In this document: positions 7,495 through 30,826 of the stretch, in pieces | Layout: every line of letters starts with the position of its first letter | Numbering within the stretch: position 1 is the first letter of the stretch | Source: Oscillospiraceae bacterium | GTDB lineage: Bacteria > Bacillota > Clostridia > Oscillospirales > Oscillospiraceae | Length of the DNA stretch: 57,613 nt | Direction: 5' to 3' | NCBI GenBank assembly: GCA_017519005.1 | Contig: JAFWTG010000060.1 | Span: forward strand, 1 to 57,613 | The notes under the pieces: model-generated | The model's input: only the letters and a program-made list of their open reading frames with translations | Told to the model about the DNA's origin: nothing | Databases searched by the model: none | Translations under genes and position numbers: made by a program

Positions 7495-8463
7495 ATGAGC
7501 GTACTGCTGCTGGGAAACGGCGTCAATCAGCTGGAGGGGCTTGCCCCCGGCTGGGACGGACTGCTGAAGCAGATCGCGGCGAAGCACGGCTGCAAATCGG
7601 ACGCCAGCCTCTCCAACATTTTGGGCTACGAGATGCTGGAGCAGCAAATCCTGCGGAACGACCCCAAGGCGACGGTGCGCAGCGTCCGTCAGAGCATCGC
7701 GGACGGTGTGCAGACGAAGGCGCTGCTGGAGAAGCGGGACTGGAGCGGCAGCGTCCACGCGAAGCTGACGGCCCTGCCGGTGAACACGATTCTGACCACC
7801 AACTACGACTACGCGCTGGAGCGCTCGCTGGACGCCGGCTTCCAGCCCGTGCGCTTCAGCACGGAGACCACCTACAGCCTGCGCCGCTTCCACGACGCGG
7901 GCGGCAAGCGCGTCTTCCACGTCCACGGCGAATGCGAGAAGCCGAACTCCATCTGCCTCGGCTACGAGCACTACGCCGGGACGCTGCAGAAGATCCGCGA
8001 GCAGATCGTGCTCTCCACCGGCAAGACGATGCCGGGGAAGGGCTACAGCTTCCAGCTGGCGGACATCCTCCACGGCCTCACGGAGAAGCCCGCCGACAGC
8101 TGGATCTACGACTTCTTTCTGGAGGACGTCTATATTCTGGGTCTGAGTCTGGACGTCTCGGAGCTGGACCTCTGGTGGCTGCTCTCCTACCGCTCCAAGC
8201 AGCGCACGGCCGGGCGGCTGCCGATTGAAAACCGCGTCGTATTTCTCGACACCGGCCGCGACGAGGTCAAGGACGAGCGCCCGGACTGCGCAAGAAGCGA
8301 CTGCGGCTATCGGAAGCGCGCCCTCAACGCCCGGCGGGAGGAGCGCCGCAGGAAGCGGGCTCTGCTGGACAGCTTCGGCGTGGAATACGTCATGTGCGCC
8401 GGCGACAGCTTCCCCGCCCAGTACGACGACGCCCTCCGCCGCCTGAAGAAGCTCTGCCTTTAA
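7495..8463 (+). CDS. SIR2-like (SIR2_2 family) domain protein, stand-alone
   Basis: LLLGNGVNQLEGLAPGWDGLL, ILTTNYDYALERS, VFHVHGE and VYILGLSLDVSELDLWWLL reproduce the SIR2_2 motif order. The RBS is AAAGGAGGG. The gene starts 29 nt after nudC. Confidence 0.75.
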   Translation: MSVLLLGNGVNQLEGLAPGWDGLLKQIAAKHGCKSDASLSNILGYEMLEQQILRNDPKATVRSVRQSIADGVQTKALLEKRDWSGSVHAKLTALPVNTILTTNYDYALERSLDAGFQPVRFSTETTYSLRRFHDAGGKRVFHVHGECEKPNSICLGYEHYAGTLQKIREQIVLSTGKTMPGKGYSFQLADILHGLTEKPADSWIYDFFLEDVYILGLSLDVSELDLWWLLSYRSKQRTAGRLPIENRVVFLDTGRDEVKDERPDCARSDCGYRKRALNARREERRRKRALLDSFGVEYVMCAGDSFPAQYDDALRRLKKLCL

Positions 8464-8485
8464 CCGGTATCATAAAGACAGTTTG

Positions 8486-8515
8486 CCCCGCGGCAGCCTG
8501 CCGGCTGCCGCGGGG
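8486..8515. terminator. GC-rich hairpin between convergent genes (possible bidirectional terminator)
   Basis: CCCCGCGGCAGC (8486-8497) and GCTGCCGCGGGG (8504-8515) form a perfect 12-bp stem with a 6-nt loop. The flanking U-tracts are weak. Confidence 0.45.
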
Positions 8516-8559
8516 CATTCGTATCGAAACAGATCAAAACGCTGACGGCGGGCGTCGGA

Positions 8560-11500
8560 TCAGATCGTCGCGCCGTTTTGCCGGAGCATCTCCCGGAGGC
8601 TGTCGGTCAGGTCTGCCTCCGAAAAATCCCGGCCGAAGACGTCCGCCTCCATTGCCTCCAGCTTGCAGACACAGGCGCCGCGCTCCAGGTCCCAGATTCG
8701 CAGCGTCATATCCGAGGAGCCGCTGATAAGCTGTCCGTTCGGGAACCAGCCCTCCGGCAGCACGGCGATACAGCGCACCCAGTCGGTATGGCCCTCGAGC
8801 TGCCCGCACTCCTCGCCGCTTTCCGCGTCCCACAGGTGCAAACGCCTGTCGTCGCCGCCGCTGACCAGCATGCGCCTCCCGTCCCGGACGAGCAGCCGCA
8901 CGCTGCGCAGATTGCCCTGCGCTTCTGCGCAGATGACGTTTACGCTCCGCTTCGGATGCCGCAGATCCCAGATCGCGATCTTTTCGTCGCGGCTGCAGCT
9001 CACAAGCAGATTCTCGCCGTCCGTATCCAGACAGTTGATGTAGCGCTCATGTTCCTTCGGCATCCTGATCTGACAGCGCAGCGTCTCTCCGCGGGACAGC
9101 TTCTCCAGATCCCACAGCAGCAGATTGCTGCCGGCTGAGGCCGCGATCCACCTGCCGCCGATCGCGGCGACGGAATCGACGCCGTCCGCTTCCTCGGTGT
9201 CCCGGCCAGGCAGCACCTGATCGCACCACTCGTTCTGCCGCAGCTCCCAGAGCTTCACGCGCTTGTCCCCGGAGCCCGTGACGAAGCTGCCGTCGGCGCG
9301 TACGGCGACGCTGGTCACCGCTCTGTCGTGCGCGGCGGGGATCCGCTGCACCGGCTCGCAGCAGTCCGGCGACCACAGCATCACGCTGTGATCCTTGGAC
9401 GCGCTGACGATTCGCTCCTCCTGCCGCTCCGGCTCATAGAAGCGCTCCACCGCGAGAATCCATCTGGAGTGACCGTCCGCCGGCTCCGCCGGAAGAATCC
9501 GCTCGCATTCCCGCCTGTCCAGATTCCAGATCCGGATTTTCCTGTCCCAGGAGCAGGCGGCGACGCGGTGCTTCGAAAGCACCGTGACGTCCGTGATCGC
9601 GCTGGAACGGCCGTACATGGTCTGCAGGCAGCGTCCGGAGGAGGGATTCCAGACTCTCAGGCTCCGGTCCTGGGCGCCGGTCACACACTGTCCGTTCGGC
9701 AGGATCGCGGCGCATCGCACCTTGTCCTCATGGCCGGGCAGCGCACGCCGCATCCGATTGTCCGTGCCCCAGAGCTCCGGCGTTTTATTGCCCAGGCAAA
9801 GCAGGTAGCAGTCCTTCAGCTCCGCAGGGCAGTCCCTGGCCTGTCCGAAGGCGACGAAGCAGTTGACCGGGCAATTTTTTTCGGAGGGTTCCCGGACTGT
9901 TTCCGGGCGCGGATCGGAGAGGCCGCATACCGCGACCCCGCCGCCGCTGTCTCCCACCAGGATCCGATCATTCCTCCCGTTCGGAAGCAACGCCAGACGC
10001 GTAATTCTCTTCTGCGCTTTCAAAAGCTCCCGTTTATGACAGCTCCGGTCCCAGGCGATCAGCTTGCCCGTTTCGTCCGCGCTGACGATGGTACTGGCAT
10101 GCTTGTCGTCTCCGTTTGGGGTGCAGACGACGTCCGTGATCGCGCCGCAGTGTCCCGTCAGCGCGGCGCGGGCGGGCGTTCCGTTTCTGTTCCAAAGCTG
10201 AATGGTCCCGGCCTTTGTCCCGCAGACGAGCCGATAGTCGAGATCGTCCTCGTCGTCCGGGTCTCCGCAGCGCAGCACCGCCAGCGCGGTGATCGCGCTG
10301 TCGTGCCTGGCCGGGCTTTTCCAGAGCGCCTCGTCCCGGTTTGGGTCCCAGAGCTGAAGACTCCCGTCCTGCGCGCTGCTGGCGATTTTTCCGTCCGGAA
10401 GCGCTATGACCGCGCTGATCGGTCCCGTGTGTCCGGCCAATCTGCGGACGAGCTGGCCCGTTCTGGCATCCCACACCCGGAGCAGGCCGTCGTCGGCGCC
10501 GTTAACGATCAGCGTACCCTTTCTCTTCGTTGGCGCCAGCGCCATACACCCGCAGCGAATAACCGTCTCCGCCGCGTCATGCTCCGTCCGGTCTGTCAGC
10601 AGCGCGACCCGCTGCCCGGTGGTGAGGTCCCAGATGCGAAGGGTCCCGTCGTAGGCGGCGGTGACGCAGCGATGTCCGGGCAGGGCGGCGACGCAGCTGA
10701 TGGTGCCGCTGTGTCCGGGGCCGCGGAAGGTCTCCTCGCTGAGCCTGGTCATGGCGGAATGCGCAGGGTTTCGGAACAGCCGCATATCCGCCTCCGCCGT
10801 GCTGCAATATCGGCTCAGGCTCAGGCTGCGCAGGTCCATATAGGAAAAGTTCAGGCCCGCGTCCCTGTCCGCAAGGCCCTTCTGGATCTGAATCCGTCTG
10901 AGCTCCAGCAGATTATACAGCAGGGTCTCGGCGCGCTGTTTTTGCTCCCATTGCTCCGCGCTGAGCGTCTGCTCGTCCGACCAGAGCTCGGCGTTTCGCT
11001 TCCAGAACAGACGGTTCGCTGTCCAGATTGCCTGAAATACGTTCTTCGGCATCAGCTCGGCGGCGTATTCCAGCGCCTCCTTCGGGATATGCTCCTGCCA
11101 CAGCGCGGGAATCTGATCGAGCTTTTTGCCGTCCTCCGGCAGCTCCATTTCCACCTGATTGACCAGATGGATCCCGGCCAGACAGTCGCGGAAATGCTCA
11201 TGGACAAATTGGAATACGGCTTTTCCGTTTTTTGGCAGCAGCAGCCCTGTATCGTACAGGACCCGATTCTCCCATTCCGCATGGTCCTCCGGGTCGATCC
11301 GCGGGCGCGCGCTGTGCGTTCTCCTGGACTCGTAATGGCTCCAAAGTCCCCGCAGGTGCAGGGGCAGCTTATCCGGGTCATAGGCGCGAAGCGCCTGCTC
11401 GATCGTCCTCGCGGCGGAGGCCTTGTCGATTCTGTACGGATCGTTCCCGAGCATCCAGCACGCCAGCTCCGGCAGGAGATAGTCGAAGGCGAAGGAATAA

Positions 11501-12771
11501 TGGACGATCCACTTCTCCTTGTCCGCCTCTTCGCACACCATGTCGCTGTTCCGGCGCAGCAGCTCCCGCTGGAAATAGTTCCAGATTAGGGCGCCGCGGC
11601 TCTCGGGATTGCGGACGGAAAGCTGGTAGCCGCAGGGAAGCGGCGGCAGCTTTGCCGTTGTGATGTACAGATTCAAAAACAGCGGATAACACAGGATCTC
11701 CCACAGCGGAGAGTCCTCCTTCGGGATCCTGACCAGATCGCGGGGATATTCCTTCAGACAGGCCCGAACCGTTTCCCGATTGAGCGGCTCCAGCCTGATC
11801 CGAAGGATTTCATCCCGGCCGCCGGGATCGAACACCTCGGAAAAGCCGGCGTCTCCGAGGGGACGCGAGGAAAACACGAGCTGCACGCCGCGGTGCTCGC
11901 TCCATCTTCGGACGCATTCCAAAACGCTCCGCCGAACGTCCTCCTGCACCTCGTTCACGCCATCGAGCAGGATCAGCATTTGGGGCCGGTCCGTCCACTC
12001 CTGCTCGGAAAGCCGCAGGATTCCGTCCTTGCAGCGCTTATATTTCTTTTCGAGATAGTCTTCCAGCTCCGGCGACTGTTTCTTTTTGAACAGATAGTCC
12101 AATTCGCACAGGGAGATATAGACCGCGGGAATCGGCGGCTCTCCCCCGGGCGAAACGATGCTGAACAGGGCCACGGTCTTTCCACTGCCGCCCTCGCCCT
12201 CGATCAGAACGACCTTCTTCTCGCCCCTCGCCCAGCTCTCCCGGATGATCCGCCACACCGGGCTGACACTGTCCTCCCCCTTCAGATGTCCAAAGGAGGT
12301 CTGCTCCGCAATCTTCATCAGGGCAAAACTGGGGTGGTTCTTCCGGCATGCCGTCAGGCACTCGTTCAACTTCTTGATGAGCGCTGCGTCCGCCGGAAGC
12401 GTCGAAGCACCGGTATTCAGGCCTCGGATTTCCCGCCTCGCGGCGTCCTCCGCCTGTCTTTTCCACTCCTTCAGCAGCTCAACTGTATAAATCTGATCAT
12501 TATCGATTATATGGGCGCAGCATTGGCATAGCCAGATCCCGTTTTCCGCCGACGCCCGCTCCTTCGCGGTCATGGTGAGGTCGTATCTTGGCCCGCCCTC
12601 CGCGGCAGCGCAGATATGGGCCGCTACGCCGACATTCGTGGCCTTTTCGGGATCGCTGTTCGGACCGCTCGTACCGATTCTGCATTCCGGATTGCTGCAG
12701 CGGTATCCGGCCCGCTTTGCAAGCACCTCTTTGACACTCGGAAGAAAATCATCCCGATTGTTTCGCTTCAT
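8560..12771 (-). CDS. NLR-like STAND NTPase: N-terminal HNH nuclease, NACHT NTPase, C-terminal WD40 repeat array
   Basis: The start MKRNNRDDF (ATG 12769-12771) follows GAAAGGAAG. The HNH-like motif is AAHICAAAEGGPRYD...NGIWLCQCCAHIIDND. Walker A is LIEGEGGSGKTV (about 12175-12200) and Walker B is MLILLDGVNEV. There are more than 12 WD40 units, e.g. GHSGTISCV...DGTLRIWD and GHTGPISAV...DGSLQLWD. Confidence 0.85.
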   Translation of the reverse strand: MKRNNRDDFLPSVKEVLAKRAGYRCSNPECRIGTSGPNSDPEKATNVGVAAHICAAAEGGPRYDLTMTAKERASAENGIWLCQCCAHIIDNDQIYTVELLKEWKRQAEDAARREIRGLNTGASTLPADAALIKKLNECLTACRKNHPSFALMKIAEQTSFGHLKGEDSVSPVWRIIRESWARGEKKVVLIEGEGGSGKTVALFSIVSPGGEPPIPAVYISLCELDYLFKKKQSPELEDYLEKKYKRCKDGILRLSEQEWTDRPQMLILLDGVNEVQEDVRRSVLECVRRWSEHRGVQLVFSSRPLGDAGFSEVFDPGGRDEILRIRLEPLNRETVRACLKEYPRDLVRIPKEDSPLWEILCYPLFLNLYITTAKLPPLPCGYQLSVRNPESRGALIWNYFQRELLRRNSDMVCEEADKEKWIVHYSFAFDYLLPELACWMLGNDPYRIDKASAARTIEQALRAYDPDKLPLHLRGLWSHYESRRTHSARPRIDPEDHAEWENRVLYDTGLLLPKNGKAVFQFVHEHFRDCLAGIHLVNQVEMELPEDGKKLDQIPALWQEHIPKEALEYAAELMPKNVFQAIWTANRLFWKRNAELWSDEQTLSAEQWEQKQRAETLLYNLLELRRIQIQKGLADRDAGLNFSYMDLRSLSLSRYCSTAEADMRLFRNPAHSAMTRLSEETFRGPGHSGTISCVAALPGHRCVTAAYDGTLRIWDLTTGQRVALLTDRTEHDAAETVIRCGCMALAPTKRKGTLIVNGADDGLLRVWDARTGQLVRRLAGHTGPISAVIALPDGKIASSAQDGSLQLWDPNRDEALWKSPARHDSAITALAVLRCGDPDDEDDLDYRLVCGTKAGTIQLWNRNGTPARAALTGHCGAITDVVCTPNGDDKHASTIVSADETGKLIAWDRSCHKRELLKAQKRITRLALLPNGRNDRILVGDSGGGVAVCGLSDPRPETVREPSEKNCPVNCFVAFGQARDCPAELKDCYLLCLGNKTPELWGTDNRMRRALPGHEDKVRCAAILPNGQCVTGAQDRSLRVWNPSSGRCLQTMYGRSSAITDVTVLSKHRVAACSWDRKIRIWNLDRRECERILPAEPADGHSRWILAVERFYEPERQEERIVSASKDHSVMLWSPDCCEPVQRIPAAHDRAVTSVAVRADGSFVTGSGDKRVKLWELRQNEWCDQVLPGRDTEEADGVDSVAAIGGRWIAASAGSNLLLWDLEKLSRGETLRCQIRMPKEHERYINCLDTDGENLLVSCSRDEKIAIWDLRHPKRSVNVICAEAQGNLRSVRLLVRDGRRMLVSGGDDRRLHLWDAESGEECGQLEGHTDWVRCIAVLPEGWFPNGQLISGSSDMTLRIWDLERGACVCKLEAMEADVFGRDFSEADLTDSLREMLRQNGATI

Positions 12772-12834
12772 TTCACTTGCTTCCTTTCGTCGTTTCGGCT
12801 CCCCGAAACAGATCATAAATTGCAGCTCACTGAT

Positions 12835-12863
12835 ATTCTATACGAATGACTGCTTTTTTTCAA
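12835..12863 (-). promoter_or_regulatory. sigma-70-type promoter for the NACHT gene (TTGAAA-17 nt-TAGAAT on the minus strand)
   Basis: The reverse complement of 12858-12863 is TTGAAA and that of 12835-12840 is TAGAAT, with an exact 17-nt spacer. The site lies in an AT-rich stretch about 65 nt upstream of the start codon. Confidence 0.5.
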
Positions 12864-12931
12864 CAAAAAAATCCGCAAAACAATCAGCAAATTTGTAAAA
12901 CATCACGTCTGTTATCCAGCCAGTCCCTCCG

Positions 12932-12970
12932 AAAAAATCCGCCCGCCCCCCGGCGGGGACGGGCAGTTTT
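12932..12970 (-). terminator. rho-independent terminator downstream of the ROCO gene (bidirectional shape)
   Basis: GCCCGCCCC/GGGGACGGGC forms a stem with one bulge and a 5-nt loop (12941-12964). It is flanked by A6 (12932-12937) and T4 (12966-12969), so the minus-strand RNA ends hairpin-UUUUUU. Confidence 0.6.
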
Positions 12971-13114
12971 CGATATTCGTCGGAACGTGGAAACAGTGGA
13001 TCGCCGGCAAGCGGTGCGGCAGTCCAACTCCAAATTTTTTCGCAATCAGGGTACCGTCAGACAACTCGCTGCTCCGGGTTCTTTTCTCGTTGAACGGAAT
13101 CGGAAGCGTGATGG

Positions 13115-16101
13115 TCATTCCTCCGTCTGGTACTCCTCCAGCAGGCGCAGCACCTTCGGAGCCATTCGGGCGGCGTGGAGGTGCCAGGCCATCAGCGAGA
13201 AGGGGTCCGTGCAGTTGCTCTTGTCCAGGTTGCAGCTGCGGTGGGCAGGGAAGTAGTTTTCCAGGTAGTCCGGCTTCGCCGTGACGAAGCCGTGGTCGTT
13301 GAGATACTTCACGTACTCCGCCAGCTCCGGCCTCTCCCGGTATCTGGAGGGGAAGATGTGATCGACCTCCATCTCCCGATAGTTCCGGATCGGATTGTTG
13401 CAGTAGGGGCAGACGCCGTTGTAGGCCTCGAAGAGGGCCTTCCGCAGCGCCTGGTTGTCCTTGGAGAAGCGATGATACACGGCGGGCAGGATTTGAACCA
13501 CGATGGCCTTGTTTTCCACGCGGATTCCCTTGATGATCCGGCTCTCGTAGAAATCGCCCAGCAGGTCCGCGGCGTCGCGCTCCTCGCCGCTGACGTTGCC
13601 GTAGACCTTGCTGCCGCGCTCCGACGCCCGCAGCAGGCTGACGACGGAATACTGATCCTCCCCGTCCACGATGACCTCGGAGGCCGTCAGGCCCAGCTCG
13701 CCGTTGATGCGCAGGAGCTCGTCCCGCAGCCGGAGGAAGATGACGGAGGCGGGCCGCGCCGGATCGGCCCAGAGGTCGATCCGCAGGGTCTCGTCGTCGT
13801 CCATGCGCACCTGGACCCGGGGGCCCTCGCTGTGGGCCAGGAGCAGGCCACGCAGCCAGCAGTGATCCACGGAATAGTCGTTCCGCATGCAGCGGATCAT
13901 CAGCCGGTGAATCACGTTGTCCGGCAGATAGCTGTATTTCAGCCGGTACTGCACGCAGCGAAGCCCCTCGCCGGGCTCCTCCAGCGCCTCCGGGGGAGAT
14001 TTGGTGGGGCAGAGCGCCGGGAAGAACAGGGTATCCGCGTCCAGTCGGTAGCAGAGCTTGTGGAGCACGGCCACGTCCAGAACGTAGGCGCACTCCTCCG
14101 GCCGGTAGACGATTTCCGGGACGGTGCGGCGGTAATCCCGCTCCCGAATTCTCTTCGGGGCCTCGCCGCAGAGCAGCTCGACGATCTGCTCCGCGCGGAT
14201 GCGGCCCTCGACGGCGCGGCTCATGCCCTCCTCGATGACGGCGTAGATGGCGTTGGTGAGCCAGACGGGGTTGAGCAGGCGGTAATCCGCCAGCTCCCGC
14301 CTGTTTTCGTCCCGGTGGTAGCTGAAGCAGACGCCCAGGCTGTTGAAGTAGGCCAGCAGAGCCGGGGCGTCGTCGTCCTCGACGCCGTTGGCCGCGCAAA
14401 GAGCGTGATAGCGCTCCCGGGTCAGGTAGTTCCGGCCCCGGCTCTCCGCGGCGATGGCGTCCCGGACCGCCTTCCACCTGCGGTTCTCCTTCCGCCTGCA
14501 GCCCTCGGAGCTCGCGGCGATCTCCACCAGGGGCTCCATGAGCTCTTCCCGGAAAACCCGGTCCTCCGCCTCCTTGGCCGAGACGCAGGCCCCCTTCGGA
14601 TCATGGGGAAGTCCTTTTTCAGGCGGGACTCGTCCAGCACGCGCAGGCCGTTGTCGTTGTCCCAGCAGTTGACGAAGAGCAGGATGGGCGATTTGGGGGC
14701 AAAGGCCGTCACGTTGCGCAGCCAATAGCGGGCCCGCTCGTCGGCCTTGGTCTCCCGGCTCTTCACCGTGACCACGTAGCAGCTGTCCTCGGAGAGGAAG
14801 CAGCGGTGCATGGAGTGGAGCAGCTGCTGGCCGCCGAAGTCCCAGAAGTGGAGGGTGTAGTCCTCCCCCTCCCAGGGAACCGTCTCGTCCAGAATCTCCA
14901 CGCCCGGCGTCTCGGAAACGTCGTAAGGCTCCGCCGCCGTCTCCCTTCGGCCGCCGCTGCGGAAGCGCCGGATGGTGTAGCTCTTGCCGGAGGCCCCGTC
15001 CCCCAGGAAAATGACCCGGCACTCCCGGAGGGGCTGCAGCGCGTCCTCCTCGTAGAGGCCGCGGATCAGCTCCGGATCGTTTTGCAGGAAGACGCTCAGG
15101 TCCTGCTCCGTCAGGGTGACGCTGCGGAGGTTGACGCCGGACTCCTCGGAGGAGAAGCCGCCGTCCCGGAATCGCAGCCCCTTCAGCGCCAGGGAACGCG
15201 GGATGGAGGGGAGGGTCAGGCCGGAGAGCGAAAGATTCTCCAGGGCCGGCAGCTGGCCGATCCACGCCGGGAGCCGCGTGACGCCGGAGCGGCCCAGCCA
15301 GAGGGCGCGCAGACTGGAGAGCTTCGCGACGCAGTCCGGAAGCTCGGTGAGCTTCGTCCGGTTGAGGTACAGCTCCCGCAGAGCGGCCAGCTGCCCGAAG
15401 GACGCCGGCAGGGCGGCGAGGGGCGCGCTGTCCAGGTCCAGCTTTTCCAGATTGGCAAGCTGCCCAAAGGAATCCGGCAGAGCGGTGATTTGCGTGTCGC
15501 TGAGGTCCAGGCTTTCCAGATTGGCAAGCTGCCCGAAGGACTCCGGCAGGGTGGCGATTGGTGTGTTGTAGAGGTACAGGGTTTGCAGATTGGCAAGTCG
15601 CCCGAAGGACTCCGGCAGGGCGGTGATTGGCGTGTAGCTGAGGGAAAGCCATTGCAGCCCGGCAAGCCGCCCGAAAGAATCCGGCAGGGCGGTGATGGAG
15701 CTGTTGTGAAGCGACAGCCATTGCAGCTTGCCAAGCTGCCCAAAGGACTCCGGAAGGTCTGTGATTCGCGTGTCGCTGAGGGACAGGCTTTGCAGATTGG
15801 CAAGCTGCCCAAAGGACTCCGGAAGGTCTGTGATTCGCGTGTCGCTGAGGGACAGGCTTTGCAGATTGGCAAGCTGCCCGATGGATTCCGGCAGGGTGGT
15901 AATTGGGGTACCGCTGAGGTCCAGCGTCTGCAGCTTGACCAGCAGTCCGACGGATTGCGGGAGGAAGCTGATTCCGGAGCCGCTCAGATCCAATTTCCTG
16001 CGGTTGGAAAGCATCCGGGATTCTTCCGCGCTGGGCGTATAGCCCCCGTCGACGCGGCAAAGCAATTCATAGACCGCCTTACTGCTGTATCGTTTCGCCA
16101 T
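13115..16101 (-). pseudogene. LRR-Roc-COR-HNH (ROCO-type GTPase with C-terminal HNH nuclease), interrupted by one frameshift near 14590-14620
   Basis: The frame from ATG 16101 gives about 11 LRRs of 23 aa (LxxLPESFGQLANLQxLxLSxTxI), then Roc motifs VIFLGDGASGKS (G1), FWDFGGQ (G3) and LFVNCWD (G4). That frame then degenerates into Arg/Pro-rich nonsense. The adjacent frame continues with ACVSAKEAE (G5 SAK), a COR-like region and the HNH motif CPYCNNP...EVDHIFPS...AHRSCNLDKSN, stopping at 13115. Confidence 0.8.
15721..15879 (-). repeat. near-perfect 69-bp tandem duplication inside the LRR array
   Basis: 15733-15789 is identical to 15802-15858, and 15790-15810 recurs at 15859-15879. It encodes SLSLSDTRITDLPESFGQLANLQ twice. 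Confidence 0.9.
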
Positions 16102-16205: not shown

Positions 16206-19200
16206 TCAGACCTTGAGATTGTCGGGCTTACTCTTCCTGTTGTTCATCGTGTTGCTCTTCCTGTCATGGTCGGGCGCGAGTCGCTCGTCCAGCAGCTTGG
16301 TGACCTTGGCCGCGAAGTCGGGGAGCTTTTGCTGAAGCGAATCCGGATTCTTGAACAGGTCGAAGAGCTCCTTCATCTGCGCGGTCTCGGTTTTGTCCTC
16401 CGAGAGCCTCATGGTCGCGTTGATGGCCTGGCGCGCGGCCGCGTAGCTGTCCGTATGCAGGGCGTTGACGTTCAGGTTCACTTCCTCGCTCAGGGCGTCC
16501 TTCCCGGCCCTGATTTCCTGCGGACTATTTTTCGTCAGGAGTTTGCGCATGAGCCCCTTGGTGTCCTCGTCCAGGTCGAAATTCCAGTTGCCGGTCGCGC
16601 TGTGGAGCTCCGTCATGGCATAGGCGTCCATCAGCATCTCCCGGAGTTCGTTGCGCTTGAGCGTGCGATTCTCTCGCTGCGTATCGAAGACCTTGTTGAG
16701 CTGGCGCAAGCGGTTTCCGATGCTGAACGGCACCTCGGGATCCAGCTCCCCGTGGAACGAATCCTTGGGCTGACCGACGGAGGGCTTCTCCTGCCGCGGG
16801 TTCTGCTCGTGCGGATTCTGCTGCTGCTTCATCTCTTCGTTGGCCGCGAGTTCCTTCTGCCGGTCCTTCTCCGCCTGAACGTCCCGGATAAGCCTGGACA
16901 GCTCGTCCATGAGATTGTCCGGCTTCTTCAGTAGCCTGACGAGCCGATTCAAATAGACGGGCTCCGCTTTCCGTTCTCCCCGGGCGTTCGAGGCCTCCTT
17001 CGGATCGCCGGCCTGTCTGGGCTTTCTCTCCTCAAGGGTGCTCAGGGTCGCTCGGACGGCGTCGCGGAACAGCTGGTACTGATCCTTGTGCAGCCTCGCG
17101 TACGCGCTCGCCTCCATCAGGCCCTTGTTCTGCTGCCCGGCCGGTCCGCCCTTCAGCCGCGCGTCGCTGTCCTTATACAGGCCGGTGTCGGCTTTGGAGC
17201 GGATAAGCGTGTTCACGTTTCTGACGGCGGCGTCGGTCACCGGTTTGTCGGGGCCGCAGGCGGCGCCGAGCTCCGTTAAGGTGAAGGCGTTATACAGCGC
17301 GTCGGCAATCTTTTCGCGGCTCATGGTACGGCTCTCGTTGTCCAGATAGAGGCTGCCCTGATGGCTCAGAGCCGCCAGCACAGGCTCCATGCGCTGCTGC
17401 GGGGTGAGATACGTTACCGCGCCGGCCTTCTCCCGCACCTGTCGGTCCTGCAGCCTTTGCCGTTCCGTCAGGTTATAATGATTCAGCAGCTTGTCTGTGC
17501 GAACGGCCGCCGCCGCCTGTTTTTTGGCCGGGTAGAGCCGCTGGATGGCATCCAGCTTCCCGGGCAGCTCAGCCATATGATTCCACTGCGCCTGAAGCTT
17601 TTTGCTGATTCTCGCGGCCAGATTGTGTCTTTCCAGGCCCTTTTTGTCCAGCTTATGATTCTGATACTGCTCCTTCTTGCGGTTGGTATAGGTCACGATG
17701 GCCTGGCTGAGCGTGACGTAGCAATTCTCCAGGCTCTGCAGCTCCTCCTGGGTGGGCTTGTGGACGGGCAGGCCGGCTTTTTCCTCCTGTTTGGTGAGCG
17801 GCGCGCCGGTCAGATCGCTGTGCTGCTTGGAAAGCTTGTGGAGGGCGGTCTTGATGGCCCCATACTCCTTGGAGCTGAAGTACACGCCCTTGTCCGCATC
17901 CAGGAGCTGATTGTAGAAGCTCAGAAGCTCCCGCTCGTCCTGCCGAAGGGTGTTGCCGAGCTTGCGCAGCTCCTCCTCGCGCTTGGACTGCCTGGCCGTG
18001 TCGCACGCGCCGTCCCAGAAGCGCTTGATGGGCATGTCGTTCACGCGATCCATGGAGAGCTTGCCGTAGTCGCCGTCCGGCACTACGTGGATGCAATCGT
18101 CGGAGACCGCGTTGATATCCTTGTCCTTAAAGTATTCCGCGCCGAGTCTGATCCGGTCCTGGACCGCGTTGAGGCGGTTCACGGCCCGGTCGATCTGGAG
18201 CTCGGGCAGGCGGTACTGCTGCAGGAGCTCCTTCAGGCTATTCCCGTCCAGCGCCATCACCCGGTCGGCCATGGACTTCGGAATGGTTTTCAGCTCCTCG
18301 AGCTTTCGATTTCCGCCGAGGTCGGTGTTCATGGTGCAGCCCATAAAGCACATGCTGTTATCGACCGCCTGGATGCCGCCCAGCTCGGCGGCGCCGTTCA
18401 CCATGGACACCTGGAAGCGCAGATTGTTCCGGCTCCGGTCCGCGTTGCCGCAGATGAAGTCCAGCACCTGCAGGGCGGCCATATCCCGGACCGCGTTCTG
18501 CGCAATCCGGGAGGACCTGTCCGCCTGCAGGAGGGCGTCGCCGTCCGCCGGGTTCCTGCAGTCGGAGCCCTTGCCGTTTTCCATGAACCAGCCCTGCGCC
18601 TTCCTGCCGTTCTGCGTCACGGTAACGGGCCTGCAGGCGGCCGTCAGGGACCCGACGCCCAGCGCCTCCGCCACCGCGGACATGGCCGCGGCCCGCGCCT
18701 CCATGGGCTGGCCGGGCTGAATCTGCATGGCTTCGCACAGCTTGCCGCGGCTTATGATCCCGGCTCTGTCCAGGAGATAGCTGTCTATGTAATCGGCGTA
18801 ATCATTCTCCGCAATGTCGTGAATGAGCTTCAGCGAGATGATTTGATCGTGCGTGGCTTCCACCGCCAGATCGTCGTAGCGATGGTTGTAGGTCCAGTTG
18901 TTGAAGATCGACGCCTGATCCAGGCGCTGCATTTCCCGTATGCCGTTTTCATCCATCGACAGCAGCGCGTCGCGCACTTTCGCGCTCTTCTCGAAGTAGC
19001 CGAGGAGCACGTCGGCGTTCTGCACGTTCGGATTGTCCGGCGACTGCTGCGCCCGCTGCTTGAGCGTGTTGAGCTCCTCCGTCATGCTTCTGAGCGGCCG
19101 GTCCGGGGTGAAGACGCCGTTCACTGCGCGCCCGTCGGGCATGGTGAAGCGCAGGGTGTTGCGGGGATTCTCCTGCGTGCCCAGGTTCACCGAATTCTGG

Positions 19201-22200
19201 CCGCCGATGTCAACGACCAGCCTCCGCTTCGAATAGAGCTCCGCCAGGTTTTCGGCATTTTTGCCCCGTTCTCCGGTCAGGACGTTCAAATCCTCCGCGG
19301 CCAGGGTTTCAATCCGCGCCGCAGCCTGCACGGCCTTGGCATAAGCAGGATTCGACAGATCCTCGGCATAGGTCCGGAAGGCCCTGGAGACGTTGGAGAC
19401 CAGCTGATAGGCGGCTTGCAGTTCCGTCCGCTGCTCCGGGCTCAGCTTCGGCAGGGCGCCGTCCGGCTGCCGGGTCATCAGGGGACCCGCAAGCTCTCTG
19501 AGTCTCTGAACGGACATGCGGATGGCGTCAAAGGGATCGTCCGCTCCAGCGGCGAGGCCCGCGTTCTCCAGCTCCGCCGTGAACTGACCGAAGGCCTCGA
19601 TGCGCTCCGCCGCCTGCTCCGCCCGGGGCTCGGCTTCCTCGCCAGCGGCTCCCATGTCCTGGGGCTCCCGGGCGTTGGAGCGATCAAGCCCGGGTTTTTC
19701 GTTCAGGGATTCCCGAACCTCGCTCTTTTTGTCCATTTCCTCGTCGATCCGGAGATTTTCAAACTCGTCTTCTCCGCCCTCGACTTCATTGCCCTGGGAT
19801 TGATCCGGCCCGGGTTCTCCGTTCAGGGATTCCCGAACCTCGCTGTCTTTGCCCATTTCCTCGTCGATCCGGAGATTTTCAAACTCGTCTTCTCCGCCCT
19901 CGACTTCATTGCCCTGGGATTGATCCGGCCCGGGTTCCCCGTTTTGGGATTCCGCAGCCGCGTTCTCTTTGGCCATTTCCTCGTCGATCCGAAGATTCTC
20001 AAGCTCGGGTTCTCCGCCCTCGACTTCATTGCCCTGGGATTGATTCAGCCCGGCTTCTGCGCTCAGGGATTCCCGAACCTCGTTCTCTTCGACCTTTGGC
20101 TCCTCGCTCTGGAGATTCTCAGGCGCGGGTTCTCCGCCCTTGACTTCATTGCTTCTGGATTCCGGAATCACGTTCTCTTCGACCTTGGGCTTTTCTTCGT
20201 TAGACCCCTCGATATTTTCCTTTCCTCTGGCGGCAGCGCTCTTGCCTTTCTCTTCGGCGCTTCTCTCCGGCTGGAAGGAGGGGGCCATCCGGTCAAAGCC
20301 CTGCAGGGTCTGCAGCAGCTGTTCCTCAAACCCGAATATCGTATCCAGCGCTTCGAGCTCCGTGCCCTGTTTGATCGTGTTGTTTTCAAGCTGGGGCAGC
20401 TCCGCCCGCAGGCTTCGGGCCATATCCTCCATGTCGCGATACCAGTCCGTATCGCGCTCGGCCTTCTTGAGCTCAAGCACCTGCAGACAGACTGCCAGGC
20501 CTCCGGCCACCAGCTCTTCCCGGAAGGGGGCGACCTTCGACTTTGACGCGGCATTGAGCATGACGTTCAGACGGTTCTGCATGGCGTCAGGGTCGATCTC
20601 ATGGGTGCGGATGTAGTCCTGCAGAGAGAAGGGAGCTTCAAGCTCCATGTCTTTGTTGTAGTTCGGCATACCAATCAGCTTTCGGTAATCCCGATCCGCG
20701 TCGTTTACGGCGATCAGATTCTGAATGCTTCGGCCTCGCAGACCGAGCATATCCCCGTCCCGTTTATTCAGAAGATCAAAGGGCAGGACCTCGCGGTTGT
20801 AGGTGTCGAGAAACAGCTGTTCGGCGTCTTGCGCCCAGCAGGCGCCACCGTCCCGGTCGAAGCCCTCCGCATCCGGGAAAGTCCAGTACAGCGGCAGGCA
20901 GCGGGTAGGCGGCCTGTAATTGCCTCCATCCAGATCCCCCGCGGCGTCGCGGGACATCAGAAGCTCCATGGTGGAGGCAAAGTCCTTGCCGTTCAGCATT
21001 GACTCGCATTTCTCCGTGAGAGTATTATGCCAGTTTCTGATGACAGCGTTGGCATACTGGGGTAAAATCTCCTCCGGCGTCATATGAAACCTGTTCATCT
21101 GCTGGTACATCAGGAAGACGGTGTTGATCTGACCCTGGTGGGGCGTGTCGAGCTGATCCCACGGGAAATCGAAGGGGTTGCGGGTCACGAACATATCCGG
21201 AGTGTTGTAATATTCTCCACCAAACCCCTCCTTAGCAATCGCCAGAAGCTCTTCCATGTTCCGGTATTCCCGGTCATAGTCTTCCCTGCACTTTTCGATC
21301 TCTGCTATGTTGCCGTTCTCAACGGCCTCGCGATAGGCTTGCTTTGCCGCTTGGATCTTGCGGTAACCGTAAACCTTGGCGCGCTCCTCCTCATTCGTTT
21401 CCGTTCTATCCTTCGGAAGCATCTCCATCTCGTCCATTTTATGAAGCATGCGGAGGATAGCGTTTTTTGTCTTTTCGGGCAGCTCCGGCGTTTGCAGGGT
21501 ATTTTTCACGCTCTCGTTGGTAGCATCCGGAAGAACAAGAACGCCGCCGAAGACAGAGATCGGCTTGCCGTTGCGTTCAATGCGCCGCCCGGCGGCGTTT
21601 TGACGCTCCTTTTGGAACAGGACAGGCTTGTAAGCGTTGGCAGCGTTGGTGCCGACGTGCTCCTTGGCCTCTGCCGCTCGTTTTGCCTCGGGGGTCGGGA
21701 CGCTCAGGATGTTCTCGGCGCCGTCCAGAGCACGCAGAAGCGCCTCCCGGCGTCCGGGCTCCTGTTCCTCCGTCCGGATCTTTTCCCGCATCTGTTCGAT
21801 CTTGTTTTTCTTCTCTTCCTGCAGAAAGGTCTTTTTCCAGGTGTCGTGGATGATGGGGTCCGCGTCCAGTTTTGAGAGGATGCTGCCGAGCTGCCCGGGA
21901 TACAGGACGTCGGGCAGATGGCGGAAAACCTCCAATGCCTGCGCAGGGCTGCGTCTCTCCAGTTCGGTGATTACGCGCACGGTCATGGTACGGGTAATCG
22001 TCTCCAGGGACAGGAACCTCACGGCAATGGCTTGCCGCTCTGCGTCGTTGGCATATTCTATAAAGATTTCGCGGTCATAGTATTTTCCGTCGATCATCCC
22101 CTGGATGATTTCCGCCGCCCTCGCCTTCTTTTGCTGATCCGGCAGCTTCTTCCACTTCTCATCGGCGGTGACAGAGCTTTTCTTTACAGTTCCTTTCAGG

Positions 22201-26879: not shown

Positions 26880-28919
26880 GTGTTCAAGGGCATCAAAAAG
26901 CTGCTCGGCAGCGGCAGGGATCAACGAAAGTGGTACCCTGTGTTTTTTCTGATTCTGCTGGTCGGCTCCCTGCTTCTGGGCGTCCTGGCCCGCTTTCTCG
27001 CGGAGAATCTGGGCAGCATCATGTCCGGCGGGGACTGGAGCTTTCGCCTCTCCCTGCTGACCGAGGCGCGGACCTGGCTGGTCGGCTTTCTGATCTGCGG
27101 CCTGTTTACGGCGATCATCGCCCTCAACGGCGGCTTCCGGGGCGTGCTGGGGAAGAGCCTGCTCAGCGGCGACGCGGCGAAGAACGTGGTGGAGGGCGCG
27201 CTGGAAAACAGCCGCTTCCTCACCGACGAGGAACGGGACAAGTATTTCCCTACGTTCAAATACGACGAGATCGACAAGGTTAAGAAGGACGGCGTCCCGG
27301 CCAGAGCCGTGCTGGACAAGAAGGGCAAGCTGGTGGGCAACTTCAAGCCCGGCGTCCATGCCCTGGTCATCGGCGCCACCGGCTCCGGTAAGACCACCAC
27401 CTTCATCAACCCCATGATCCAGCTCCTGGGCGCCACCAACTGCGGCTCCTCCATGATTATGACGGACCCCAAGGGCGAGCTCTTTGATCTGCACTCCGGC
27501 TTCCTCAAGAGCCGGGGCTACAACGTGATGGTGCTGGACCTGCGCGACACCTACTCCTCCAGCCGCTGGAACCCCCTGGAGCCCATCTGGGATGCCTATC
27601 AGGAATATATCAAGGCCGGACGCGGCATCAAGATGCACCTGGACGCCATGAGCGACTACCCGGAGCTGCGGCGCATGAACGGCGAAGCCGCGCCGGGCGA
27701 ACGCTGGGTGGAATACGACGGCAAGGCCTATCTGGACCTGACCCACTGCCAGGACGACGTTCAGGTGGCCAAGCAGAAAATCTACGATGAAATGTACGAG
27801 GACCTGAGCGATCTGATCGGCGGTCTGATCCCCGTTCAGAACGAGAAGGACCCCCTCTGGGAAAAGGGCGCCAGGTCCATCGTGATGGCGCTGTGCCTCG
27901 CCATGCTGGAGGACAGCGAAAACCCCGCCCTCGGCATGACGAAGGAAAAATACAATCTCTTCAACGTCAACAAAGCCCTGGGCAACAGCGAGAACGAGTA
28001 TCAGGCGCTGAAGGACTACTTCGAGGGCCGCAGCAAGCTCTCCCAGGCCTATCAGCTGTCCCGGCAGGTCATGACCGCCCCGGACACCACCCTGGGCTCC
28101 TATATGTCCATCACCTTCGACAAGCTGAACCTCTTCAACGACCGGGGCCTCTGCGCTCTGACCTCCGCCACGGACATTCACGCCGACCGCTTCGCCTTTG
28201 AGCCCACCGCCCTCTTCCTGAAGATCCCCGACGAGAAGGACACCCGCCATTCCCTGGCGTCTCTGTTCATCCTGAGCACCTACAAGGCCCTCATCAAGAT
28301 CGCCACGGGACTGCCCGGCCAGACCCTGCCGCGGAACGTCTACTTCATCATGGACGAGTTCGGCAACATGCCGAAGATCGACAAGTTCGGCCAGATGATC
28401 ACCGTGGGCCGCTCCAGAAAGATCTGGTTCAACATGGTGGTCCAGTCCTTCGTCCAGCTGACCAACGTCTACGGCAAGGAGGTGGCCGATATCGTCATCG
28501 GCAACTGCGGCGTCAAGATGTTCATCGGCTCCAACGACACCGACACCTGCAAGATGTTCTCCGAGATGTGCGGCAACATGACCGTGCGCACCACCTCCAC
28601 CTCCTCCAGTCTGTCCAGCAAGGCCGGAGACGTCAGCGTCTCCTCCCAGACCCAGGTCCGCCCGCTGATCTACCCCAGCGAGCTGCAGCGGCTGAACAAC
28701 CAGGAGAGCACCGGCAACTCCATCATCGTGTCCTTCAACTCCTTCCCGCTGCGGACGAAGTACACGCCCTCCTACAAGTGTCCCTACTATCAGTTCGGTC
28801 CCATGGACCTCAGCGAGATCCGCAGCAACGTATTCCGTGCCGACGAAGTTTACTACGACCTGAAGGAACGCAACAGAATCGTTCTGGGCGATCCGGACGA
28901 TGACTACATTGAAGGATGA
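26880..28919 (+). CDS. VirD4/TraG/TcpA-type type IV coupling protein
   Basis: Two N-terminal TM helices, Walker A VIGATGSGKTTT and Walker B YFIMDEFGNMPKI. GTG start after GAGGGGAAGGGA. Confidence 0.85.
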   Translation: MFKGIKKLLGSGRDQRKWYPVFFLILLVGSLLLGVLARFLAENLGSIMSGGDWSFRLSLLTEARTWLVGFLICGLFTAIIALNGGFRGVLGKSLLSGDAAKNVVEGALENSRFLTDEERDKYFPTFKYDEIDKVKKDGVPARAVLDKKGKLVGNFKPGVHALVIGATGSGKTTTFINPMIQLLGATNCGSSMIMTDPKGELFDLHSGFLKSRGYNVMVLDLRDTYSSSRWNPLEPIWDAYQEYIKAGRGIKMHLDAMSDYPELRRMNGEAAPGERWVEYDGKAYLDLTHCQDDVQVAKQKIYDEMYEDLSDLIGGLIPVQNEKDPLWEKGARSIVMALCLAMLEDSENPALGMTKEKYNLFNVNKALGNSENEYQALKDYFEGRSKLSQAYQLSRQVMTAPDTTLGSYMSITFDKLNLFNDRGLCALTSATDIHADRFAFEPTALFLKIPDEKDTRHSLASLFILSTYKALIKIATGLPGQTLPRNVYFIMDEFGNMPKIDKFGQMITVGRSRKIWFNMVVQSFVQLTNVYGKEVADIVIGNCGVKMFIGSNDTDTCKMFSEMCGNMTVRTTSTSSSLSSKAGDVSVSSQTQVRPLIYPSELQRLNNQESTGNSIIVSFNSFPLRTKYTPSYKCPYYQFGPMDLSEIRSNVFRADEVYYDLKERNRIVLGDPDDDYIEG

Positions 28920-28957
28920 TCGGGCCAGCCCAATCGCCGAAAGGGAGGAAAATCACC

Positions 28958-29410
28958 GTGAGCCAACCCAATAACAGTCCCGCCATGAGCTGCGGAGAAT
29001 ACCTGCGAAGGCAGCGCGCCGAGCTGGACCGGATCACCGACCTCGGTACGGACGCCGCCAGAGCAGAGGTCAAACGGCTGCTTGCGAATATTTACGCGGT
29101 CAACTATCAGATGATGTACGAGCGCATCGAGCCCCCCGGACCCAACCGCCGCTCCGCCACCCTGGAGCCCGTAGACCGGGAGCTGGTGGAGAGCACCGCC
29201 AAGGCCCTGAACGAGGGCGCGCCGGAGCTTCAGGACATCGTGGACGACCCCTGGAAGCTCAGCGAGGCGATCTACCGGGCCCAGCAGGGCAACGGCTTCC
29301 AGCTGGTGGAGATGGTCAACATCGCCCACCTGGCCCGGACGGCCCAGCACAGGCCCGAGGCCCCCGCCCGGACGGAGCCCGCCGCCCGTCCGGCCAAGCC
29401 CGGCCTGTAA
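28958..29410 (+). CDS. small cytoplasmic hypothetical protein
   Basis: The GTG at 28958 follows AAGGGAGG. There are no TM segments. The protein contains DDPWKLSE, reminiscent of the DPW motifs in the VirB4 tail. Confidence 0.6.
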   Translation: MSQPNNSPAMSCGEYLRRQRAELDRITDLGTDAARAEVKRLLANIYAVNYQMMYERIEPPGPNRRSATLEPVDRELVESTAKALNEGAPELQDIVDDPWKLSEAIYRAQQGNGFQLVEMVNIAHLARTAQHRPEAPARTEPAARPAKPGL

Positions 29411-29422
29411 CAGGAGGCAATT

Positions 29423-30826
29423 ATGAAGGACAACAAAAAAAGAACCGGCCTTCTCCGAAGGCTCTGTCTGCTCCTGACGGCGGCACTGCTCCTCTTTGGG
29501 ACCTTCGGCGCCGCGCCCCGGGCCGAGGCCGCCGAGAAGAGCCTCTCCGCGGTGCCCGGCACCTACGTCCGCTGGCGCAAGGGCCTGCCGCCCCAGGACG
29601 GCAGCTGGTACCGGGCCCTGATCATTGCCGATTACGGCTTCGGGCTCCGCTTCCTGATTCACGGCAACGAGGTGGGGCCGAATCAGTATTACGGGAACGG
29701 CGCATCCGCCGGCGACAAGCTGGTGATGGATAACCCGGGAGACGATCTGGACCGCTTCCCGGAGATCGACCTTTCCAAGGATTCCTTCTTTACCGACTCC
29801 TACCTGATGGCCCTGGCCCTGCGCTACAACAGTACGGCCGGCTCCGCCGGAAACGGCAGGGAGCCCCATTTCGGCAACGCGCCCTATTACGAGATCGCCC
29901 TGCCCAAGACCGATAAGGCCGTAGACAGCATCGGCTTCCGCTATGACCCCGCCACCCAGGTTGACAGCGACGGAGAGCCCCTTTACGGCGCAAAGATCAC
30001 CAACAATCCGACGCCCTGGTACTTCTGCGGTTACGAACACGACAGCTCCGTGGACAAGGGAAAGTACGTCATCGGCTGCCTGCGCAATCGGAACAACAGC
30101 GGCACGAACACCTATCTTTGCAGCGGAAAGGATCTGTTTCCGCCGAAAACCCATCAGAACGCTTATACCTGCTTCGCCAGCTCGGTCATATGGTGGGACA
30201 CGGATGAATTTTACGTCTACTACGGCGAGCAGATGCTGATCGACGCCGTCGCGGACAACCAGGTCATTGACGACGACGAGATCGTCAACGTCAACGGCAG
30301 CAGCTACCTGACGCTGCAGTCCGGCAGCACCCTGACCGTCAAGGACGGCGGCATCCTCTCCATCGGCAGCGGCCTGTTCAACGACGGCACCATCCGGGTG
30401 GAAAAGGGCGGTACCCTCATCGTCAAGCAGAACGCCTTCATCATGCCCTGGCAGCTGGGAAACGGCAGCGGGAATATTATCTGCGACGGCGGCGACGTGA
30501 TCATCCAGAGCGGCGGCCGCGTGGTCTGCGAGGGCGCCTCCGGCTTCAAGTTCGTGGAGGACGGCAGAACCTGCGGCACCGTCTATAACTACGGCGTCAT
30601 CGTCACCCAGGCGCTGACCATTCGCGGCAAGGCCAACGCCTTCCACAACCTGGGCGGCGTGATGCTGGGCTACCGGGTCAAGCCCGCCGAGGCCCAGGCC
30701 TTCCGGGACAGCGCGATCCACTTTTACGGTGCCTCCGCCATACTGGACGGCATGACCGCCGGCGGAATTAACGTGGACCAGGTGACGGCCGGCGTCGTCA
30801 CCGGCAATCAGGTGATACGCCCATGA
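29423..30826 (+). CDS. secreted hypothetical protein (signal peptide; Gly-rich beta-helix-like C-terminal half)
   Basis: The signal peptide is MKDNKKRTGLLRRLCLLLTAALLLFGTFGAAPRAEA. Later short repeats include GGILSIGSG, GGTLIVKQ and GGDVIIQSGG. The RBS is CAGGAGG. Confidence 0.75.
   Translation: MKDNKKRTGLLRRLCLLLTAALLLFGTFGAAPRAEAAEKSLSAVPGTYVRWRKGLPPQDGSWYRALIIADYGFGLRFLIHGNEVGPNQYYGNGASAGDKLVMDNPGDDLDRFPEIDLSKDSFFTDSYLMALALRYNSTAGSAGNGREPHFGNAPYYEIALPKTDKAVDSIGFRYDPATQVDSDGEPLYGAKITNNPTPWYFCGYEHDSSVDKGKYVIGCLRNRNNSGTNTYLCSGKDLFPPKTHQNAYTCFASSVIWWDTDEFYVYYGEQMLIDAVADNQVIDDDEIVNVNGSSYLTLQSGSTLTVKDGGILSIGSGLFNDGTIRVEKGGTLIVKQNAFIMPWQLGNGSGNIICDGGDVIIQSGGRVVCEGASGFKFVEDGRTCGTVYNYGVIVTQALTIRGKANAFHNLGGVMLGYRVKPAEAQAFRDSAIHFYGASAILDGMTAGGINVDQVTAGVVTGNQVIRP

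Follow-up and report, generated by a model that had tools for sequence, protein, structure and literature searches.

Positions 1–57,613 of contig JAFWTG010000060.1 of an Oscillospiraceae bacterium (assembly GCA_017519005.1) were analyzed and are referred to below as the window; all coordinates are those of the window. Its G+C content is approximately 62%. The longest open reading frame (ORF) of the window, at positions 16206–24203 on the minus strand, corresponded by ORF calling and translation to a giant protein of 2665 amino acids (aa) with a kinase-like module inside; residue numbers are those of this protein. The identical protein was found on nine metagenome contigs, and no signal-peptide-like or transmembrane (TM)-like segment was found in its 2665 residues. 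From the N-terminus, the protein is made of a module of approximately 460 aa, a variable helical region, acidic repeats, a module shared with a large bacterial family, and helical C-terminal repeats. The family module was complete (aa ~1560–2300). The region homologous to the entire family module, aa 1611–2058 (18030–19373, minus strand; E 3.7e-146 with the family hidden Markov model, HMM), comprised a lead-in helix, a kinase N-lobe, a helical insertion, a C-lobe and C-terminal helices. A search of the window for a second copy of the family domain showed that this copy is the only one.

A first-pass annotation of this DNA had proposed that five kinase motifs follow each other between 18200 and 19250. 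The minus-strand translation of this interval is a single uninterrupted frame inside the 2665-aa ORF, and the five motifs were all present there, in order and in frame. The N-lobe strands 1–3 covered positions 19095–19217 (minus strand, as for all the positions in the giant gene), with VVDI forming strand 1, followed by a loop, R1681 and GVFT as strand 3, according to the secondary structure of the model described below. The first motif, VVDIGGQNSVNLG, was located at aa 1663–1675 (19179–19217). It had been taken for a glycine-rich loop; the position, between strands 1 and 2, is conserved and is accompanied by the invariant R1681 at the start of strand 2 (19161–19163; Arg in 167 of 169 family domains), but the two glycines 1667–1668 are not conserved in the family. 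The second motif, AVNGVFTPDRP, corresponded to aa 1693–1703 and to positions 19095–19127, close to the ~19096–19125 given earlier. It contains T1699 (19107–19109) in strand 3, in a segment that reads G-F-F-T in 160–166 of 170 family domains. Between strand 3 and an alphaC-like helix, the alignment and the model showed a helical insertion of approximately 120 aa (18729–19085), whose sequence and length vary among family members and which occupies the place of the palmitoylation insertion of the type II PI4-kinases (PI4KII). The alphaC-like helix EARAAAMSAVAEALG (18657–18701; family consensus D-x-R-N-x-A-M-S) retained R1837 (Arg in 176 of 179 domains), whereas A1838 replaces an asparagine present in 161 of 180.

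The third motif, the stretch AEALG...GWFMENG, was found at 18561–18701 and ends in strand 5 and the hinge, GWFMENGKGSD (18561–18593; family G-T-F-M-E-x-A-x-G-x-D), which pairs with GSFQLFVEG of PI4KIIalpha. The fourth, VLDFICGNADRSRNNLRF, at aa 1913–1930 (18414–18467, a few bases from the 18424–18470 first given), forms the end of alphaE and the catalytic loop, as judged from hhalign and family conservation. The loop of the window copy reads DRSRNN, with a serine in place of the histidine of the family DRH, and contains D1922 (18438–18440) and N1927 (18423–18425). The fifth, GGIQAVDNSMCF, lay exactly where it had been placed (aa 1942–1953, 18345–18380) and is the DFG-equivalent. The family motif is IDND-x-SF; the window copy shows VDNS, a serine replacing the second aspartate of DND, and contributes D1948 (18360–18362). 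The hhalign alignment equates D1922, N1927 and D1948 with D308, N313 and D346 of PI4KIIalpha, and all three are kept in the window copy.

The homologues were collected by an exhaustive phmmer/HMMER search with the window domain among 1.84 billion cluster representatives (clusters at 50% identity). A total of 1028 homologues were obtained at E ≤ 1e-3, of which 619 reached E ≤ 1e-10. Conservation was counted over 179–190 domain copies from the 150 best representatives, and a smaller alignment, A1, contained the window domain and 19 relatives. The conserved columns of the family alignments were exactly the motifs of the first-pass annotation. The consensus includes S-x-R(IP), G-F-F-T, D-x-R-N-x-A-M-S-x-V-A-x-L-L-G and G-T-F-M-E-x-A-x-G-x-D in the N-terminal half, then L-Q-V-L-D-Y-I-C-G-N-x-D-R-H-x-G-N and I-D-N-D-x-S-F-G in the C-lobe. 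In the catalytic loop the counts were 167 of 179 for the aspartate, 175 of 179 for the arginine, 153 of 179 for the histidine and 169 of 178 for the asparagine; the aspartate of the DFG-equivalent was present in 168 of 179 domains. Loss of the catalytic Asp and Asn positions among homologues had been named beforehand as an observation that would speak against a kinase. The Asp/Asn/Asp triad was intact in 108 of 116 single-domain representatives, and proteins with tandem domains kept it in most of their copies; about 92% of the family domains have it. Because the triad is so widely intact, it can be argued that the family is, on the whole, one of enzymes.

A typical member of the family has 750–1400 aa, begins with MP and carries one or two copies of the domain. 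Signal-peptide-like or TM-like segments were absent from the 150 representatives, and the family is cytoplasmic-looking. No recognizable domain besides the kinase-like one was detected in the scanned members, with the exception of one protein of approximately 800 aa, among the 56 of an alignment A2, which matched the MLD membrane-localization domain (PF11647, E 1.2e-7). The MLD domain is known from large toxins acting inside eukaryotic cells. A profile scan of the GTDB species genomes gave 300 matches confirmed by tblastn, often several per genome, mainly in rumen and gut Lachnospiraceae, Oscillospiraceae/Ruminococcaceae, Erysipelotrichaceae and Eubacterium. The size of this bacterial family makes doubtful the earlier description of the domain as being of eukaryote-like type. 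A scan of genome contigs for close relatives gave no match, against these 300 with the profile, and a word-indexed homology search returned no protein with the domain and one with the family profile. No match was found among plasmids and phages by tblastn with the window domain and the canonical member P0038, nor in IMG/VR by profile scan, nor in PHROGs, NCBIfam and PADLOC for the giant protein or the domain. The family thus corresponds to no known plasmid or phage gene and to no catalogued defence or phage family.

The assignment of the fold relied on the family more than on the window copy, for which three results were unfavorable. The only Pfam match of the window domain was PF00454 (PI3_PI4_kinase), over aa 1901–1954, with an E-value of 0.04 and 14.3 bits, below the gathering cutoff of 27.1 bits. 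A phmmer search with the window domain against the PDB sequences returned nothing relevant, and the TM-scores of the structural matches presented below were low (0.35–0.37). The latter were attributed to the ~120-aa helical insertion and to the fact that targets were lysozyme fusions. The first two are what could be expected from a chance resemblance of motifs in a helical giant protein devoid of a kinase fold. However, 1028 homologues conserve exactly these motifs, and the profile, HMM–HMM and structure searches all point to one set of kinases, so that we regard a chance resemblance as already refuted.

PF00454, which the first-pass annotation had suggested searching, was in fact the commonest Pfam match of the family, in spite of the sub-threshold score of the window copy. 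It was matched by 18 of 20, 47 of 56 and 21 of 29 members scanned singly, with a best E-value of 2.1e-13; the values of the better relatives ranged from 3e-8 to 2e-13, and the family borders the Pfam model. Fam20C was second (31 of 56 members, with E-values of only 1e-5 to 3e-9) and did not match the window domain; HipA_C was matched by one member of 56. When the family profile was compared to the PDB sequences, the nine best matches were all FAM20 or PI4KII proteins, including FAM20C (E 1.8e-3), FAM20A, PI4KIIbeta and alpha (0.04–0.06) and nematode FAM20, all aligned on GNxDRH...IDNxxxF. The AlphaFold2 (AF2) model built from A1 had a mean pLDDT of 80.6 and a pTM of 0.77, and showed the order of strands and helices found in kinases. 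The ten best Foldseek matches of this model in the PDB were PI4KIIalpha and beta (E 7.5e-7 to 3.2e-5, probability 1.0). Lower matches included Toxoplasma RON13, Helicobacter pylori CtkA, HipA, CotH, MavQ, VPS34 and mTOR, and the significant ones were all kinases. Among the viral models of BFVD, the best matches were phage proteins annotated “PI3K/PI4K catalytic domain”. The hhalign comparison of A1 with PI4KIIalpha (probability 80%, E 1.4e-5) covered the hinge, alphaE, the catalytic loop and the DFG-equivalent; the PI4KIIalpha (PI4K2A) query was identical to the sequence of PDB 4HND except for the engineered SSPSS. It is therefore nearly certain that aa ~1650–2045 form a bilobal atypical kinase domain, belonging to the PI4KII/FAM20/CtkA branch of the protein-kinase-like superfamily. 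The proposal of a PI3/PI4-kinase-superfamily fold was borne out, and the closest solved relative, according to the Foldseek top ten, hhalign and PF00454, is type II PI4-kinase.

The domain was compared to PI4KII (PDB 4HND, 4PLA and 4WTV) and to the FAM20C/Golgi casein kinase family (5YH3 and 4KQB). As in PI4KII, strands 1-2-3, an insertion, alphaC, strands 4-5 with the hinge, alphaE, the catalytic loop and the DFG-equivalent follow in the same order, strand 3 is likewise followed by a large insertion, and the segments LDYIxxNxDRxxxN and IDNxxxF align residue for residue. The identity is only ~12–14%, the domain is bacterial and embedded in helical proteins of 750–2665 aa, and the family has invariants of its own: the strand-2 arginine, R-N in alphaC, the cysteine of DYICGN, and DND. 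GNxDRH and xDNxxxFG are aligned with FAM20C, and the histidine of DRH is common to both; unlike FAM20, the family lacks a signal peptide or a secretory-pathway context, and it keeps the asparagine of D-x-x-x-x-N where FAM20C has a glutamate. FAM20 was absent from the top 50 structural matches. A likeness to the CotH spore-coat kinases was seen in the fold matches; the Pfam CotH model gave no match in any family scan. The resemblance to HipA is more remote, with E-values for CtkA and HipA four to five orders of magnitude weaker than those for PI4KII, no HipA N-terminal domain, and no HipB-like or conserved small HTH neighbor.

The most conspicuous departure from known kinases concerns the lysine of strand 3. 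The AVNGVFTPDRP segment had been compared to the VFKPK-type motif of PI4KII; its position was right, but the lysine is missing, being replaced at the position of K152 of PI4KIIalpha by T1699 in the window copy and by threonine in 163 of 171 family domains. The pairing of GfFTp with avFKp appeared only in a low-confidence extension of the hhalign alignment, and is consistent with strand 3 in the model. In PI4KIIalpha, K152 binds ATP and the K152A mutant is dead (PMC3974213). The family alignment contained no invariant lysine anywhere in the domain, and the two invariant arginines were R1681 in strand 2 and R1837 in alphaC. The missing lysine weighs against an active enzyme. In the WNK kinases, a lysine of strand 2 is used. 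We infer that the invariant arginines may take over phosphate binding from the strand-3 lysine.

In the mechanism that we propose, the domain would catalyze an ATP-dependent transfer of a phosphoryl group to a hydroxyl substrate. D1922 would be the catalytic base, and Mg2+ would be held by N1927 and D1948. The ATP phosphates would be contacted by R1681, in the manner of the WNK strand-2 lysine, and/or by R1837, with the threonine standing in the place of the canonical lysine. Considering all these elements together, we lean, without strong conviction, towards the window copy being an active phosphotransferase; such an activity seems likelier for the family than for this particular copy.

As in SelO or SidJ, a kinase fold could also serve another chemistry, such as AMPylation, glutamylation or a different kind of nucleotidyl or phospho-transfer. 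The absence of the strand-3 lysine would then be accounted for, and the family-wide replacement of Lys by Thr alongside two new invariant arginines is compatible with such a chemistry; atypical “pseudokinases” without canonical residues have repeatedly proved to have alternative activities. However, D-x-x-x-x-N and the DFG-like aspartate are of the ordinary phosphotransferase type and correspond one to one to those of PI4KII and FAM20C, and neither SelO nor SidJ was found among the top 50 structural matches. Another chemistry thus appears very improbable, and phosphoryl transfer remains our preferred activity.

A more serious challenge to an active enzyme comes from the decay of the active site in the giant proteins. 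Three near-invariant residues, 85–93% conserved in the family, are changed in the window copy: the alphaC asparagine (N to A), the histidine of DRH (DRH to DRS, His in 153 of 179) and the second aspartate of DND (DND to DNS, Asp in 166 of 179). In P0002 and in a giant of the related locus L083, the catalytic loop reads GTANRNKDN and the catalytic aspartate has become an asparagine; in a 1618-aa protein of the locus L082 it reads GNVDRQPGS, the Mg-binding asparagine being replaced by a serine; P0007 has lost both aspartates. P0003, P0004 and P0005 are canonical. All of these losses speak against activity of the window copy. Since three family-invariant residues are lost, this copy could be a pseudokinase or an enzyme of reduced activity, and relaxed constraint or pseudokinase drift in the clade of the giants is plausible because the closest paralogues have lost the catalytic aspartate or the Mg-binding asparagine.

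In that case the domain would have kept the kinase fold and lost catalysis, and would act as a scaffold, a nucleotide- or ligand-binding module or a regulatory module, maybe paired with an active paralogue as FAM20A is with FAM20C. The related loci, in which two or three tandem giant paralogues mix canonical and degenerate active sites, resemble the FAM20A/FAM20C mixture of kinase and pseudokinase, and in the nearest relatives of the window copy the catalytic Asp, the DFG Asp or the Mg-binding Asn is missing altogether. However, the window copy still has the minimal triad D1922/N1927/D1948. Two of the three changes, DRS and DNS, need not inactivate the enzyme, because PI4KII, an active relative, has a glycine after DR and after DN. 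No active partner exists in cis, the window containing one family copy only, and the C-lobe, with 60–72% identity to P0002, is one of the better conserved regions of the giants. A pseudokinase is for these reasons a possibility to be kept in mind but rather unlikely, and a window copy endowed with phosphotransferase activity is still the reading that we favor.

Within the giant subfamily, conservation was highest in the N-terminal module of ~460 aa (22824–24203, minus strand). Its core (aa 101–400) showed 84–91% identity to P0002, and aa 1–460 showed 47–73% identity to five other giants. This module is better conserved among the giants than the kinase-like domain and possesses many invariant polar residues. 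The AF2 model of aa 1–460 was poor (pLDDT 56), and its comparison by Foldseek gave no meaningful match; searches of the PDB sequences with the first 1400 and the last 606 residues of the giant protein gave none. The module may serve in secretion or docking, or it may represent a second domain with a functional or enzymatic role. Directly N-terminal to the kinase module, repeat detection and translation revealed a low-complexity acidic linker made of 3.9 tandem copies of a 120-nt (40-aa) unit (19688–20152, minus strand), containing QSQGNEVEGGEDEFENLRIDEEM. The near-identical giant P0001 (2541 aa) lacks ~124 residues at this repeat (0% identity over aa 1401–1500), so the number of copies may differ between strains.

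Two or three tandem giant paralogues, all with the kinase-like module, were observed at the related metagenome loci L083 (1–14722) and L082 (2809–14659). The possibility that the giants are polymorphic toxins, with a fixed N-terminus and a variable cargo, was rejected since every tandem paralogue has the same kinase-like module. A conserved protein of ~1070 aa follows the giants in L081, L082 and L083; it was searched for in the window and was absent.

The giant gene is preceded by a two-component system on the same strand. A LytS-type histidine kinase (HK, 24287–26086, minus strand) is located directly upstream of it, and an XRE-HTH response regulator (RR, 26083–26682, minus strand) directly upstream of the HK. 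On the plus strand, divergent from the giant gene, positions 26880–46484 are occupied by a Gram-positive-type type IV secretion system (T4SS) cluster. It begins with the coupling protein (T4CP, 26880–28919), followed by two ORFs without assignment, a conjugal TM protein of the MMCAP2_0566 family (31891–34644), an unusually long VirB4-like ATPase of 1466 aa (34693–39093, detected with the VirB4 “Mbov_0397/CD1110” models) and a second giant ORF of 2463 aa (39093–46484), with a sub-threshold PLAT/LH2 match only. The divergent region between the RR and the T4SS measures approximately 200 bp and contains promoter-like hexamers facing both ways, and no terminator-like site was seen on the minus strand between the RR, HK and giant genes; both observations are weak evidence.

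In L081, whose giant is only 52% identical, the order T4CP, 467-aa and 329-aa proteins is kept together with the order RR-HK-giant, and an HK is also present upstream of the giants in L082. The same type of T4SS also adjoins family genes in L009, L052 and L047; in L047 the family gene follows VirB4 downstream on the same strand. Synteny with a two-component system and a Gram-positive-type T4SS is confined to the giant subfamily. From this conserved RR-HK-giant arrangement beside a T4SS, the giant protein is probably expressed under two-component control, and probably acts with, or is exported by, the adjacent T4SS.

Several observations run counter to the latter proposal. The link between the giant protein and the T4SS is one of synteny only. 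A T4SS of this type was present within 10 kb in only three of 77 genome loci, clustering of the neighbors in the 77 loci showed no recurrent partner gene, and 150 neighbors fell into 109 Pfam families, all housekeeping-like. In addition, no relaxase was identified among the window ORFs scanned, in a search that was not exhaustive. The most frequent neighbor, and the only family encountered more than three times, was DUF6709 (~216 aa), with four of the 150 neighbors in four loci, three of them immediately adjacent to the family gene (including L065:8071–8721); it may be a lineage-specific partner or a coincidence.

The combination of a very large multi-module protein, the absence of a secretion signal and the position of the gene beside a T4SS is reminiscent of the polyvalent proteins. 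According to a published proposal, these proteins of phages and conjugative elements travel into the target cell along with the DNA and modify proteins there (Iyer et al. 2017, PMC5512222). Their kinases are of the Ser/Thr/Tyr-kinase type without a C-lobe, and not PI4KII-like (PMC5512222). None of the companion domains of polyvalent proteins (MuF, ART, ParB, methylase, peptidase) was detected, the kinase-like domain alone being recognizable in the giant protein. The phage proteins with PI3K/PI4K-like domains found in BFVD have 500–1479 aa. The giant proteins of the “Hodor” megaplasmids, which have signal peptides and S-layer domains, were considered and are different proteins.

The first-pass annotation went further and suggested a lipid- or protein-kinase domain that would fit an effector acting on membranes or signaling of a target cell. 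In a lipid version of this model, a PI4K-like phosphoinositide kinase would reshape membranes or signaling after its injection into a eukaryotic cell, be it of the host epithelium, a rumen protist or a fungus. The closest solved structures are indeed the lipid kinases PI4KIIalpha and beta, MavQ and VPS34 were also matched, the environment is the gut or rumen, where eukaryotes abound, one family member possesses an MLD domain, and the gene adjoins a T4SS. The elements specific to PI4KII nevertheless appear to be missing. The CCPCC palmitoylation insertion is needed for membrane binding and activity of PI4KII, and the PI-pocket of PI4KIIalpha involves E157, Y159, R181, L184, T307 and L349 (PMC3974213). 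In the domain, neither CCPCC nor any Cys-rich motif is present, an RK-rich insertion is not recognizable from the sequence, and the segment after GFFTP, where E157 and Y159 of the pocket lie, is not conserved in the family, the N-lobe alignment being too weak for residue mapping. Moreover, the nearest structural neighbors of PI4KII are protein kinases (PMC3974213), so that the fold does not imply a lipid substrate. A lipid substrate is consequently not indicated. Since the lipid and membrane elements of PI4KII seem to be missing, we slightly favor a protein over a phosphoinositide as the substrate. The effector idea itself has T4SS synteny alone behind it, most family members being found among housekeeping genes without a secretion system. 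The T4SS is of the Gram-positive conjugation type, and to our knowledge no system of this type injects proteins into eukaryotes. A lipid-kinase effector is accordingly improbable.

A broader version, in which the giants are T4SS substrates injected into either a bacterial recipient or a eukaryote of the rumen or gut, where the Lys-less and Arg-dependent domain would phosphorylate a membrane lipid or a signaling protein, is improbable too and should be seen as speculation. If true, it would mean that commensal Clostridia possess an effector-translocating T4SS with a new kinase class and a dedicated two-component switch, and the tandem kinase and pseudokinase paralogues would be a diversifying arsenal.

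Two other groups of genes were noted in the window. Just downstream of the giant gene, a block with the appearance of a defence island (5577–16101), absent from the syntenic L081, includes a split ROCO made of an LRR-Roc protein (14422–16101) and a COR protein with a PtuB/HNH-like C-terminus (13115–14224), a protein of 1418 aa that joins an endonuclease “effector” domain at its N-terminus to WD40 propellers at its C-terminus (8560–12816), a SIR2/ThsA-like protein (7495–8463) and a NUDIX NADH pyrophosphatase (6635–7465). At 48069–54328, two adjacent paralogues of ~1050 aa combine Reg_prop/Y_Y_Y sensor propellers with a C-terminal SpoIIE (PP2C) phosphatase; a homologue of these proteins was observed near the family gene of L052.

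By its fold and its catalytic machinery the domain is of a known kind. The variations that are new are the family-wide loss of the strand-3 lysine, the family-specific invariant residues, and the T4SS-linked giants with kinase and pseudokinase paralogues. None of the ten clusters looked up carried a name for the family, and literature searches found no description of it; some relatives already receive a weak PF00454 label from automated pipelines. The analysis defines a large family of atypical kinases in the dominant rumen and gut Firmicutes, with more than 1000 clusters at 50% identity, unnamed in the sources queried and neighboring the eukaryotic PI4KII and FAM20 in fold space. As it does without the strand-3 lysine needed by PI4KIIalpha, two invariant arginines being kept instead, it offers a natural test case for ATP binding in this fold. 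The giant subfamily, with its tandem active-looking and degenerate paralogues, two-component system and T4SS, provides a testable lead on the passage of large protein cargo through Gram-positive T4SSs. If the substrate turned out to be a lipid or a host or protist protein, this would represent a new mode of interaction for gut commensals.

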